Below are positions 20,601 to 26,956 of a stretch of DNA of 64,000 bases, one piece after another. A program made the position numbers and the translations under genes. The first letter of the stretch is position 1; each line of letters begins with the position of its first letter. Source of the DNA: Escherichia coli (GTDB taxonomy: Bacteria > Pseudomonadota > Gammaproteobacteria > Enterobacterales > Enterobacteriaceae); NCBI RefSeq assembly GCF_024298765.1, contig NZ_CP101210.1; one strand, given 5' to 3'. The notes beneath the pieces were generated by a model, which had not been told where the DNA came from, made no database searches, and worked only from the letters and a program-made list of their open reading frames with translations.

Positions 20601-20757
20601 CTGTTCCCTCCCTGTGCGGCATGGTCGCATGTGCGTGCGGCGGGGGTTACTGCTTTTTGTTGTCGCCGGGTCGGGAGAACGGCGCAGGGGTGAGATTACG
20701 CGCGTGGTGGGTGATGATTGTTGCCGAATCATTTAACGGATACAAGGGGCTGAAGCT

Positions 20758-21942
20758 ATGAGTGAAACTCGTTTTCATGGTGCCCGTGTTACGGAAAATA
20801 CCGACCTGGTAACAGCGATTAACGATGTTGATTCCAGCGTTATCGGTATCGTGGCAACGGCGGATGATGCGGACGCGAAGCTGTTCCCGCTGAACAAGCC
20901 CACACTGCTGACCCGCGTCAATGACGTGCTGGGAAAATGCGGGACAACGGGGACGCTTTATCGTGCGCTTAAGGCCATCGCAGACCAGGTGAGCACAAAG
21001 GTGATCGTCGTTCGCGTGGCTGAACACAAAGAAGAAGACGGAAAGACGCAGGATCAACTGGTTATCGGTGGTTCTGAGGATGACGGCAGCTATACGGGGA
21101 TGTATGCGCTGCTTGTTGCAGAGCAGGATGAAAGCATCGGATACCGTCCGCGTATTCTGGCCGCGCCGGAGCTGGACACGGAGGCGGTAACAAAATCCCT
21201 GTGCGTGATTGCGGGTAAACTGCGCGCGTTTGTGTATGCCTCATGTCACGGCTGTAACACGATGGCTGAGGCGATTACCTACCGCCAGAAATTCAACGAA
21301 CGTGAGGTGATGCTTTTATGGCCGGACTTCATCGCCTACAACCCGAAAAGTGGCAAAAACGAAACGTTCCCCGCGCCTGCCTATGCGTGCGGCCTTCGTG
21401 CGTACATTGACCATGAGCAGGGCTGGCACAAATCGCTGTCCAACGTTCCTGTTAAAAATGTGCTGGGAATGTCCAGGCATGTGTTCTGGTCGTTGCAGGC
21501 CGAAGACAGTGATGCCAACAGCCTCAACAACAAAGAAATCACGACCATTATTCGTCGCAACGGGTTCCGCTTCTGGGGCAACCGCACACCGGAAACGAAC
21601 GCCTACATCTTTGAGGTGTATACCCGAACCGCACAGGTGCTGGCTGATTCAATTGCGGAAGCGCAGTTTGAAACCATCGACAGTCCACTGACGCCTGCGA
21701 ACGTGAAGGATGTTATCAGTGCCATCAGGGCAAAACTGGATTCACTGGTTACTGCCGGGAAACTGATTGGCGCGGAGTGCTGGTATGACGTGGTGGATAA
21801 CAGCACCACGGATTTACGTCAGGGGCGTGTGCGTATTCGCTACAAATATACGCCTGTTCCGCCACTGGAAGACATGGAGCTTTACCAGACGTTTACTGAT
21901 GAATACTTTGAACCTGCATTTGCGGTGCTGGGAGGTGCCTGA
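20758..21942 (+). CDS. Contractile tail sheath protein (P2 FI homologue)
   Basis: 394 aa with conserved sheath motifs (RILAAPELDT, WPDF, IRRNGFRFWGNRT, YTPVPPLE). Confidence 0.9.
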   Translation: MSETRFHGARVTENTDLVTAINDVDSSVIGIVATADDADAKLFPLNKPTLLTRVNDVLGKCGTTGTLYRALKAIADQVSTKVIVVRVAEHKEEDGKTQDQLVIGGSEDDGSYTGMYALLVAEQDESIGYRPRILAAPELDTEAVTKSLCVIAGKLRAFVYASCHGCNTMAEAITYRQKFNEREVMLLWPDFIAYNPKSGKNETFPAPAYACGLRAYIDHEQGWHKSLSNVPVKNVLGMSRHVFWSLQAEDSDANSLNNKEITTIIRRNGFRFWGNRTPETNAYIFEVYTRTAQVLADSIAEAQFETIDSPLTPANVKDVISAIRAKLDSLVTAGKLIGAECWYDVVDNSTTDLRQGRVRIRYKYTPVPPLEDMELYQTFTDEYFEPAFAVLGGA

Positions 21943-22454
21943 TGGCTGTGCCAAAACATCTTCGCTTTTTTACGCTGTTTGTGGATGGTGAAAACGAAGT
22001 GGGTAAGGTGACGTCCGTCACTCTGCCTAAGCTGACGCGCAAAACCGACAGCTACCGGGGGGGTGGCATGATGGGTGCGGTAAGTATTGATCTCGGTCTG
22101 GACGACTCCGCGCTTGATGCGAGCTTTGTCATGGGGGGCGCAGTTCGTGAGCTGTTCCTGAAGTATGGCGGCACGATTGACGGCACGCTACTGCGTTTTG
22201 CGGGTGAATACTACACCGATGCAGAAAGCGACCTGTATGAAGTCGAAATGCGCGGACGTGTGACGGAAATTGATATGGGGGAAGCCAAACAGGGCGAAGC
22301 CACATCACACACTTACGCCATTAAAAACACCTACTACAAGCTGAGTGTTAACGATCGCCCGTTGTGGGAGATTGATCTGCTGAACTTCATTTACCGGAAG
22401 GACGGCAAGGACATTGTGCCCGATCGCATCCGTTCCGCGCTTGGGCTTGGCTGA
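21942..22454 (+). CDS. Tail tube protein (P2 FII homologue)
   Basis: 170 aa immediately after the sheath gene with an ATGA overlap. Confidence 0.85.
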   Translation: MAVPKHLRFFTLFVDGENEVGKVTSVTLPKLTRKTDSYRGGGMMGAVSIDLGLDDSALDASFVMGGAVRELFLKYGGTIDGTLLRFAGEYYTDAESDLYEVEMRGRVTEIDMGEAKQGEATSHTYAIKNTYYKLSVNDRPLWEIDLLNFIYRKDGKDIVPDRIRSALGLG

Positions 22455-22508
22455 TAAGTAATATGCAGGCGGCGCAGTGCGTCGCCTCTGACTGAAAGGA
22501 GTTTCCTG

Positions 22509-22874
22509 ATGAAAGAGACGAAAAACATCGATACCGAAAACACGGTAGTTACTGACACTGTGAAAGAAACCAGTGAGCGTGGCGTAAAACTTACCCAACC
22601 AATTGAGCGAGGCGGCGAAAAAATCACGTATGTGGATATCACCGGGGCTATTGAGCAGGCTGGATCTCTGCGAGATTTGTCGCTGTCTGATGTGCTGAAT
22701 CTGAAAGCGGAATCCATGTTTACGCTGCTGTCACGCGTGACATCACCGCGACTGGATGAAGTGACGATCAAAAAAATGGCATCCCGTGACTTTATTCAGT
22801 TATGTGTGGTTGCCGTAAATTTTTTGAGCGGTGCGGACTCTGGCGGGAAGAACGAACAGGCGACGGAAGCCTGA
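22509..22874 (+). CDS. Tail assembly chaperone gpE
   Basis: Small ORF between tube and tape measure containing the T6G slippery site. Confidence 0.7.
   Translation: MKETKNIDTENTVVTDTVKETSERGVKLTQPIERGGEKITYVDITGAIEQAGSLRDLSLSDVLNLKAESMFTLLSRVTSPRLDEVTIKKMASRDFIQLCVVAVNFLSGADSGGKNEQATEA
22820..22826 (+). other. Programmed -1 ribosomal frameshift slippery heptamer TTTTTTG (E to E+E')
   Basis: TTTTTTG inside gpE; the -1 frame continues as FFERCGLW... to 23038. Confidence 0.5.
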
Positions 22875-23038
22875 TCACGGTTGTGTGCTTTGAGCACATA
22901 GAAGACTTTGTGGCGGATATTGCCGCCATTTTTAACTGGTCGCCCGCCGAAATCTTCATGATGACGCCCGGCGAAGTGGTTAGCTGGCGTGAGCGGGCGG
23001 CACTTCGCAGCGGGAATGCAGACAATGAAGACTCTTGA
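22825..23038 (+). CDS. E' extension (-1 frame) of the E+E' frameshift product
   Basis: ORF 22802-23038 in the -1 frame relative to E, ending just inside the tape-measure start. Confidence 0.5.
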
Positions 23039-25832: not shown

Positions 25833-25838
25833 GGAGTC

Positions 25839-26333
25839 ATGGTCATGATGATGATCTACGGCATGTTTGTTTTTGAGCTGCGCACACTGCCGCATCAGCA
25901 GTTACAGCAAAACAAAAGCTGGCGGCATGTGAAAAATGAACGCGTTAACCGTTCAGCAAGCTGGCAGTATATAGGTGCAGGTGATGATCGCATTGTGCTT
26001 TCCGGCGTGCTTTATCCTGAAATTACAGGTGGCGAAGTGTCGCTTTCGTTGCTGACCACGCAGGCATATACAGGACGCCCCTGGCCTCTGATTGATGGTG
26101 TCGGGCAGATTTACGGCATGTATGTGCTGACTGAAACGAATACGACCCGTTCCGAGTTTGATCGCTACGGTAAGGCGAAAAAGATAGAATTTTCACTGAC
26201 CCTTGAACGCTGTGATGAGGATTTGCGGGAGCGCCTGCAATCCTCATCATTCAGCGATATGCTGTCCGGCTTCAAAGATAAGGTGACATCATCTCTTAAC
26301 AGCGCGGCCAGTTCAGTTAAAGGGCTGTTCTGA
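25839..26333 (+). CDS. Tail protein gpU (P2 U homologue)
   Basis: 164 aa directly after the tape measure. Confidence 0.8.
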   Translation: MVMMMIYGMFVFELRTLPHQQLQQNKSWRHVKNERVNRSASWQYIGAGDDRIVLSGVLYPEITGGEVSLSLLTTQAYTGRPWPLIDGVGQIYGMYVLTETNTTRSEFDRYGKAKKIEFSLTLERCDEDLRERLQSSSFSDMLSGFKDKVTSSLNSAASSVKGLF

Positions 26334-26344
26334 TTTAACACAAA

Positions 26345-26379
26345 AACCGCTAATGGTCAGATTAGCGGTTATTTTGTTT
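26345..26379 (+). terminator. Rho-independent terminator after gpU
   Basis: Stem aaccgctaat / attagcggtt with a 6-nt loop, followed by attttgttt; overlaps the invertase 3' end. Confidence 0.5.
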
Positions 26380-26956
26380 CCTGACTCTTCTCTATTGTTC
26401 CGATTGATTCTCCTGCGGGGTGGTAACGATAAATCGTCGATATACCAATGCCGTAAATTATTGCCAGTTGTTTTCTGTCGTGCCCGTTTTTGATCAGCCT
26501 TGCTATTTGCTCATGCTGTTCTTTTGTCAGCTTCGGTCGACGTCCGCCTGTGCGCCCCCGTGCGCGTGCTGCCGCCAGTCCGGCCAGTGTACGTTCAACA
26601 ATTAATTCACGTTCCATTTCAGCCAGGGCACCCATCACGTGGAAGAAAAAACGCCCCATTGGAGAAGATGTATCTATGCTGTCGGTCAGACTGCGAAAAT
26701 TAATTCCTCGCTCCCGTAGTTCCCCGACGAGAGAAATCAGATGTTTCATGCTTCGCCCGAGGCGATCCAGTTTCCAGACAACCAACGTGTCACCTTTTTG
26801 AAGGCGCTTTAAAGTGCGTTTTAATCCCGGTCGGTCTGTCTTTGTCCCGCTTAATTTATCTTCAAATATTTGTTCACATCCTGCACAAACAAGAGCGTTT
26901 CGTTGCAGGTCTGTATTCTGGTCATTTGTTGATACCCTGACATAGCCAATCAGCAT
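26369..26956 (-). CDS. Serine recombinase, Gin/Hin/Pin/Cin-family DNA invertase
   Basis: MLIGYVRVSTNDQNTDLQ... catalytic Ser in the YVRVS motif, resolvase N-terminal domain, C-terminal HTH (IYGIGISTIYRY). Confidence 0.85.
   Translation of the reverse strand: MLIGYVRVSTNDQNTDLQRNALVCAGCEQIFEDKLSGTKTDRPGLKRTLKRLQKGDTLVVWKLDRLGRSMKHLISLVGELRERGINFRSLTDSIDTSSPMGRFFFHVMGALAEMERELIVERTLAGLAAARARGRTGGRRPKLTKEQHEQIARLIKNGHDRKQLAIIYGIGISTIYRYHPAGESIGTIEKSQETK

Follow-up and report, generated by a model that had tools for sequence, protein, structure and literature searches.

Gene order around the tail genes of P2 and P88

In phage P2 the tail genes FI to D belong to a single operon and share their strand with the genes V-G. 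The late genes O and P of this phage are divergent, and the P2 record annotates a single activator site for pO and pP, with transcription start sites 111 bp apart. This shared-site architecture has been experimentally mapped in P2, where O/P is its sole location. P88 (Xuanwuvirus P88, NC_026014) is a functional phage for which plaques, EM and a burst size of about 65 are reported (PMC5285337). In phage Mu inverted gix sites enclose the alternative tail-fibre genes of the G segment, which is served by the invertase Gin.

We analyzed a 64,000-nucleotide stretch of an Escherichia coli genome, here called the window. It carries an intact P88-like prophage (Xuanwuvirus, Peduoviridae), integrated at tRNA-Leu(taa) and with a 124-bp att repeat at each end. 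Relative to P88, 74.8% of the prophage aligns at 95.5% identity; the product of 71.4 is just over the genus threshold, which by ICTV convention is an identity times coverage of about 70% or more, and under the 95% species level. Genes were identified with PHROG and NCBIfam profiles and with the annotation that PGAP gives for a genome of 99.5% identity. For FI, E and U the NCBIfam profiles gave little; the PHROGs resolved all three.

The gene for gpD (19491-20600, minus strand) is intact and codes for a protein of 369 aa of the late control D/baseplate hub family, as judged from PHROG and NCBIfam profiles. It is preceded by a strong ribosome binding site, AGGGAGGGAACAGATG. On the other side of a 157-bp intergenic region (20601-20757) and on the plus strand follow the tail sheath gene FI (20758-21942), the tail tube gene FII (21942-22454) and gpE (22509-22874), all recognized by profile matches. 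The sequence contains the slippery site T TTT TTG at 22820-22826, at which a -1 frameshift would give the E+E' product (22509-23038; E' lies in the -1 frame and ends at 23038). The tape measure protein gpT of 935 aa (23025-25832; profiles and PGAP) and the tail protein gpU (25839-26333; profile match) complete the block. The whole FI-FII-E/E'-T-U block (20758-26333) thus points against gpD. Profiles and PGAP agree with the original prediction that FI to U run on the plus strand and gpD and the tail-fibre genes on the minus strand. It was also right in that FI to D form one operon in P2, and that here D and FI are divergent across 157 bp, with D uncoupled from the F operon.

The end of U is separated by 35 bp from a convergent gene for a Gin/Hin-type serine DNA invertase (26369-26956, minus strand; profile and nucleotide similarity). 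Between the two lies a bidirectional intrinsic terminator (26345-26370) with a 10-bp stem and T-runs on both strands (z -4.1 and -4.5). Beyond the invertase a G-like invertible tail-fibre segment (27011-30108) carries alternative fibre tips and assembly genes between inverted gix sites, as in Mu; the tail-fibre gene H (profile/PGAP) is found at 29138-31240 on the minus strand. The invertase and gix sequences are 91-96% identical to those of Mu, D108 and SfMu. Only two gix sites are present in the window (27011-27036 and 30083-30108), both bounding the variable tail-fibre segment, and a search allowing up to three mismatches found no third site in the window.

Downstream of gpD and on the same strand we find an ogr/delta-type zinc-finger late activator of 86 aa (17393-17653, minus strand; CX2C-X24-CX4C), identified by phrog_603, NF007241 and its PGAP name. 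A promoter scan proposes a sigma70-like promoter, TTGGAA-17-TAGAAT, for this gene (17706-17678, minus strand).

Compared with the P2 F operon, the genes FI-FII-E-E'-T-U are the same and stand in the same internal order. Also common to both are the T TTT TTG motif for the E/E' -1 frameshift, a PF-type dyad 80-90 bp ahead of the start codon of FI and an Ogr-type activator gene downstream of D. Unlike in P2, however, FI-U runs against V-G, D and ogr. The P2 arrangement, in which D directly follows U on the same strand and is co-oriented with V-G, is not found in the window; whereas D overlaps the end of U in P2, D has here its own ribosome binding site and a putative promoter.

With P88 the gene order and strands are identical (H-G / G'-H' / invertase / U-T-E'-E-FII-FI / D / ogr). 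The same order is common to the relatives Citrobacter PhiSM, P884B11, 500465-2, PhiR44_2 and Chuche. The P88 region is 97.3% identical to the window in nucleotides, its structural proteins are 94-100% identical (D 96%) except O at 81%, and its D/FI spacer has the same 157 bp and the same dyad. Between D and ogr, which are 45 nt apart in P88, the prophage has 1.8 kb of inserted low-GC DNA; it further differs from P88 by other cargo between Q and A and by another immunity/integrase end. PADLOC and Pfam gave no match for three low-GC cargo ORFs, and an Rfam scan of the whole window returned nothing beyond three tRNAs.

A candidate two-way late promoter between D and FI

The D/FI spacer, which measures 153-157 bp in the five phages compared, contains a dyad of the activator type, GTTGT-CGCCGGGTCGGG-AGAAC (20659-20680, centre 20669.5; TGT-N12-AGA at 20661-20678). 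The original prediction reported no late-promoter motif in this region. The exact TGT-N12-ACA is indeed absent from 20601-20757, but the statement is misleading: a conserved dyad of the P2 type is present, only one mismatch away with AGA in place of ACA as the right half-site, and the PF and PP/PO sites of P2 itself are also imperfect (TGT-N12-CCA). Since TGT-N12-ACA, with 0 or 1 mismatch, is as frequent in the window as in shuffled sequence, the motif count is uninformative alone and we used phylogenetic footprinting instead. TTGT-N12-AnAnC is invariant in 8 phages, in an alignment with a mean column identity of 56%, and the orthologous site is a perfect TGT-N12-ACA in SEN5, Kp4871-3 and KSP20. 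The longer pattern TTGTTGT-N12-AGAAC, chosen post hoc from the very two sites that it finds, matches twice in 64 kb, in the D/FI and the O/P spacers. The second dyad (39565-39588) occupies the centre of the divergent late region of 154 bp between O (scaffold) and P (terminase) in this prophage.

On both sides of the D/FI dyad we find candidate -10 elements. For the FI operon this is GATGAT (20713-20718, plus strand), in which A..AT is invariant, with a predicted start at about 20725. For gpD it is GACCAT (20621-20626, minus strand), with a predicted start at about 20614; the aligned hexamers of the five phages read nAnnnT. In all five phages examined nAnnnT hexamers stand at -12 to -7 of both predicted starts, and a GC-rich block on the D side of the spacer is conserved among them. 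The predicted starts lie 55.5 bp either side of the dyad, as do the annotated starts of P2 PP/PO. The two regions further share divergent late genes about 155-175 bp apart, a single central dyad, GC-rich upstream elements and nAnnnT -10 hexamers. The features of an Ogr-type late promoter are matched as well, namely a dyad about 55 bp upstream of the predicted start, the -10 spacing, the lack of a good -35 element and a phage-encoded C4 zinc-finger activator. We therefore infer that the D/FI spacer is a bidirectional Ogr-dependent late promoter and thus a putative second copy of the architecture mapped at O/P in P2. The dyad would bind Ogr and fire both promoters.

It could be argued that the spacer holds no late promoter for D and that this gene depends on read-through or a constitutive promoter. 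The D-side hexamer GACCAT is weak and the predicted D leader is only about 14 nt long, both in line with such a view. Still, we consider it unlikely. No sigma70 -35/-10 pair was found in 20601-20757, and read-through from the H/G/invertase side would need to pass 5.6 kb of antisense sequence as well as the bidirectional terminator. Moreover, both the GC-rich block and the nAnnnT hexamer towards D are conserved in the five phages compared, which argues for a promoter under selection.

Conservation and origin of the FI-U orientation

The FI-U orientation is fixed and normal, and thus ordinary, among P88-like and related phages, working ones included. The stretch from D over FI-U to the invertase is recovered as a single colinear megablast piece of 95-97% identity in P88, PhiSM, P884B11, 500465-2 and others. 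Among 5426 complete E. coli genomes, 1103 have it in colinear form. Of the 1379 such genomes with a match, 1355 have an intact D/FI junction, whereas the hypothetical P2-like junction of U to D is joined in none of 1414. The divergent layout is common to Novemvirus, Reipivirus, Reginaelenavirus, Senquatrovirus (SEN4/5) and Serratia KSP20. PhiSM forms plaques and lysogenises (PMC6456863), and plaques and EM are documented for SEN4/5 (PMC5261728). Among the matches listed, all phage records with a D of at least 62% aa identity that are also in the FI list have both genes divergent and adjacent. The canonical order is found in all three checked records with a D of about 51% (ST512-KPC3phi13.2, ST11-VIM1phi8.4 and ST13-OXA48phi12.1) and in SopEPhi, ST340-VIM1phi10.2 and P2. 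In the searchable literature we found no explicit description of the FI-U inversion or of the D/FI promoter.

At the nucleotide level the prophage and P2 have a similarity of 8.9%. The divergence of the proteins is even across the breakpoints, with 42-46% aa identity inside the block (FI 46%, FII 42-44%, U 46%) and 41-55% for the flanking genes (D 48%, J 55%, N 41%). Together with the restriction of the gix sites to the tail-fibre segment, this suggests that the inversion is old and has become fixed in one clade of the Peduoviridae.

Alternatively, the FI-U module was imported from another lineage with contractile tails and inserted backwards, and not inverted in place. Phage modules are frequently exchanged, rearranged tail genes are reported for further P2-like phages, Smp131 among them (PMC3931495), and T and E, at 29-33% identity to P2, are more diverged than their neighbours. 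But FI, FII and U resemble their P2 counterparts no less than D, J and N do, and FI/FII/U co-vary with D across the genera of the clade (53-71% for the block, 63-71% for D). Further, the PF-type dyad has kept its P2 orientation and distance to FI. An import is thus quite improbable in our view, and we prefer an inversion of the resident genes.

The invertase gene adjoining the right end of the block raises the question whether FI-U is flipped as a programmed switch, as part of an extended invertible segment. We give this almost no weight. Both gix sites lie beyond the invertase, and the original prediction correctly noted that the block boundaries have neither gix sites nor other inverted repeats. 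No inverted repeat with one arm at each boundary (20.6 kb and 26.3 kb) was found, only short pairs at chance level. One candidate, I21 (18 nt, 83%), was rejected; one of its arms lies within D and the other upstream of the invertase, both off the junctions. The other orientation is missing from all 1414 genomes, and SEN5, phiT5282H and ST16-OXA48phi5.4, the three flanks that were read, have the same FI-U orientation with no invertase annotated beside U. The invertase acts on the tail-fibre segment and not on the FI-U block; the Mu-type inversion system is a mere neighbour here.

A recent rearrangement or an assembly fault confined to this genome, for which only the contrast with the P2 map speaks, is refuted by the identical junction in those 1355 genomes and in about 11 independent phage records and by the lack of the canonical junction in any genome. 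The original prediction of an unusual rearrangement with junctions in need of confirmation therefore falls, as functional P2-like relatives (P88, PhiSM and SEN4/5) and further genera have this layout as their normal one.

Proposed late control and its meaning

We are fairly confident that the layout is the vertically inherited standard order of a P88-like prophage, which goes back to an ancient, fixed FI-U inversion, and that the D/FI dyad would provide two-way late control of the Ogr type. We suggest the following course of events. A segment with the PF promoter and FI-FII-E/E'-T-U would have been inverted once, long ago, in one clade of P2-related Enterobacterales phages and later fixed, while D and ogr would have retained their original direction. 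A single inversion in situ is the origin which we infer; excision and re-insertion of the FI-U module may be an alternative. The inversion would have left the morphogenetic genes grouped about two regions of divergent late control, O/P and D/FI, each with one dyad-symmetric Ogr-type site and a -10 element about 55 bp away on both sides. FI-U would thus be driven rightward and D leftward, in the way that the P2 site serves PP and PO. In the P88-type relatives with their short distance between D and ogr, the D transcript would also cover ogr. The bidirectional terminator past U could shield the block from the invertase and tail-fibre genes that run towards it.

As to the breakpoint, we lean towards a left end just upstream of the PF activator site. 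This site would then have been co-opted in both directions as a second P/O-like Ogr-dependent promoter, and D, with ogr by read-through, would have become its own transcription unit, apart from the sheath and tube genes with their high expression.

P2 does not serve as a template for every "P2-like" prophage, a finding of small significance beyond annotation. About one quarter of the complete E. coli genomes have a prophage of the alternative layout, which should therefore be annotated without any warning of rearrangement or faulty assembly. The layout would also imply that, once an inversion has taken place, a palindromic activator site can be put to new use in both directions; this may be a simple route to the splitting of an operon.

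Gene order of the prophage

The chromosomal part of the window carries fli genes, uvrC and pgsA and ends with tRNA-Gly/Cys/Leu (15745-16047). An apparently intact prophage of 37.3 kb follows, limited by a 124 bp direct repeat (15993-16116 and 53405-53528) which takes in the 3′ end of tRNA-Leu(taa). Nucleotide similarity places the prophage in Xuanwuvirus: 74.8% of it aligns to Escherichia phage P88 at 95.5%, and the similarity to P2 is 8.9% (identity × coverage).

The gene map is based on ORF calls, PHROG and NCBIfam profiles and the PGAP annotation of a genome with 99.5% identity. 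It places the tail sheath FI (20758-21942), tube FII (21942-22454), E (22509-22874), tape measure T (23025-25832) and U (25839-26333) on the plus strand and a serine invertase (26369-26956) on the minus strand. E′ (plus strand) extends in the −1 frame to 23038, and a slippery site T TTT TTG lies at 22820-22826. On the minus strand we further find gpD (19491-20600), an intact ORF of 369 aa with its own strong RBS, an ogr-type activator (17393-17653; 86 aa, CX2C-X24-CX4C) and, beyond an invertible tail-fibre segment, H (29138-31240) and the baseplate genes. Thus D and FI start divergently across exactly 157 bp (20601-20757), the FI-U strand is opposite to that of the genes on both sides and U adjoins the invertase, all as originally predicted; the P2 record also bears out that FI to D form one operon there, co-oriented with V-G. 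A hairpin at 26345-26370 with a 10-bp stem and T-runs on both strands (z about −4 per strand) is a terminator for the convergent U and invertase transcripts.

Compared with P88, where ogr begins 45 nt past D and a TAGAAT −10 lies just beyond the D stop, the window has a 1.8-kb low-GC insertion between D and ogr, which keeps TAGAAT and contributes a TTGGAA −35. An ORF of 495 aa (17873-19360, plus strand, about 35% GC) lies in this non-P88 block (17678-19490) and has no match in NCBIfam, PHROGs, PADLOC or Pfam. The D-ogr gap is a typical cargo site in P2-type phages, so an uncharacterised role in defence or as a moron gene is possible. Two further low-GC (35-42%) ORFs of 491 aa (42883-44358) and 269 aa (44697-45506), both on the plus strand between portal gene Q and replication gene A, belong to a non-P88 block at 42902-45592. 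They stand where P88 and E. coli O111:H8 8E have parM/partition genes, and neither matches a PADLOC or Pfam family. In 8E, the closest genome (99.5% identity), gpD is annotated at 20092-20945 only as an 801-bp CDS beside a pseudogene fragment; this copy may therefore be defective, in contrast to the intact ORF of the window, although the full 369-aa D aligns there at 99.7% by tblastn, at odds with the annotation.

Distribution and origin of the divergent layout

The 7.7 kb from D to the invertase give one colinear alignment of 95-97% identity to Escherichia P88, Citrobacter PhiSM, Xuanwuvirus P884B11 and the phages 500465-2, 520873, 503458, PhiR44_2 and Chuche, and the strands in the P88 record are identical gene for gene. 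At least 80% of this stretch is aligned in 1103 of 5426 complete E. coli genomes. The D/FI junction is unbroken in 1355 of the 1379 genomes with a match. A chimeric probe for the canonical order, with the 5′ end of D fused to the reverse-complemented 3′ end of U, matched with both its halves in 1414 genomes; the two were joined in none (places with at least 80% coverage). Plaque formation, a contractile tail seen by EM and a burst size of about 65 are documented for P88 (PMC5285337); PhiSM is plaque-forming and lysogenised K-12 (PMC6456863). The layout is thus normal in functional phages, and the original view of the FI-U orientation as an anomaly is refuted.

The same order is present in the functional Salmonella phage SEN5 (Senquatrovirus; PMC5261728), Klebsiella Kp4871-3 and 3LV2017 (Reginaelenavirus), Kp4847-1 and ST16-OXA48phi5.4 (Reipivirus), Enterobacter phiT5282H (Novemvirus) and the Serratia KSP20 fragment. 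We cross-tabulated strands and positions of D and FI tblastn matches in the phage collection. Wherever D shares 62% identity or more with that of the window and both genes are among the matches listed, FI lies on the opposite strand, with starts roughly 110-230 bp apart (157 bp in Xuanwuvirus records); CP052639.1, also at or above 62%, is outside this tally, being missing from the FI matches listed. At about 51% D identity the order is canonical in the three records cross-checked (ST512-KPC3phi13.2, ST11-VIM1phi8.4, ST13-OXA48phi12.1), as it is in SopEPhi, ST340-VIM1phi10.2 and P2. Given this split and the gap in D identity from 62% to 52% among the tblastn matches listed, the divergent layout appears to be a derived trait common to one Peduoviridae clade infecting Enterobacterales.

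Identity to P2 is even over the breakpoints (FI 46%, FII 42-44%, U 46%, D 48%, J 55%, N 41%), and within the clade FI/FII/U (53-71%) and D (63-71%) diverge together. The pattern agrees with an ancient inversion in situ and vertical inheritance thereafter; an old replacement of the FI-U module is improbable. Switching by the invertase is excluded, as gix sites occur only at the tail-fibre segment, the block has no end repeats and alternative junctions number zero. The Mu G-like segment (27011-30108) holds two alternative fibre tips and two assembly genes, bounded by 65-nt inverted arms within which lie the gix sites 27011-27036 (plus) and 30083-30108 (minus), each with at most 3 mismatches. These sites and the Gin-type invertase share 91-96% identity with their counterparts in Mu, D108 and SfMu. 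The 64 kb contain no further gix site at up to 3 mismatches and, in agreement with the original prediction, no inverted repeat with one arm at each end of the FI-U block. No invertase annotation adjoins U in SEN5, phiT5282H or ST16-OXA48phi5.4.

A putative late promoter between D and FI

S (33590-34234) and V (33012-33593) overlap and, unlike in P2, there is no orf30 or separate PV region. O through G may form one late operon, which would leave just O/P and D/FI as divergent regions of late control.

The P2 record lists a single "activator binding site; pO, pP promoters" (3057-3087) for divergent starts at 3016 and 3127. The centre of this site, GTTGT-N12-CCATC, is 55.5 bp from either start, and that of the PF site, GTTGT-N12-CCAAC, precedes the mapped FI start by 55 bp. 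As both sites have CCA in place of ACA, the textbook motif TGT-N12-ACA (PMC3931495) is imperfect even in P2. The D/FI spacer reads TTTTTGTTGT-CGCCGGGTCGGG-AGAAC (dyad 20659-20680, centre 20669.5) and the O/P spacer TTTTGTTGT-AAGAAAACAGTC-AGAAC (39563-39588). TTGTTGT-N12-AGAAC occurs twice in the window, in these two spacers only, a post hoc count with a pattern derived from the sites themselves. When the D/FI spacers of eight phages (at least five genera, and KSP20, which is unassigned) are aligned, columns are on average only 56% identical, yet TTGT-N12-AnAnC is invariant; at the aligned dyad TGT-N12-ACA is perfect in SEN5, Kp4871-3 and KSP20. In the P88 (33155-33286) and SEN5 (13800-13952) records, small CDSs labelled "hypothetical protein" lie across the spacer and overlap the dyad; these are probably annotation artefacts.

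With the P2 geometry, starts are predicted at about 20725 (plus) and 20614 (minus), 111 bp apart as in P2. The hexamers at −12 to −7 of both fit nAnnnT in all five phages examined (FI side GATGAT, TGATAT, GATGAT, GAATAT; D side GACCAT, GACGAT, AACCAT, AATCAT) and are similar to GAAAAT, GAAACT and TAGCCT of P2. On the FI side A..AT is invariant in 8/8 aligned phages, and a GC-rich block on the D side resembles that upstream of P2 PP. No sigma70 −35/−10 pair was found within the spacer, as expected for activator-dependent promoters. Dyad conservation, geometry, hexamers, the activator gene and the RBS of D make it fairly likely, by analogy with P2, that the spacer is a bidirectional Ogr-dependent late promoter. 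One dyad would then serve predicted promoters in both directions, towards FI and towards D.

In summary, the FI-U orientation is the normal, fixed gene arrangement of a common prophage family, of which functional phages have already been published, and the sole, mildly new point is the putative late promoter shared by D and FI.
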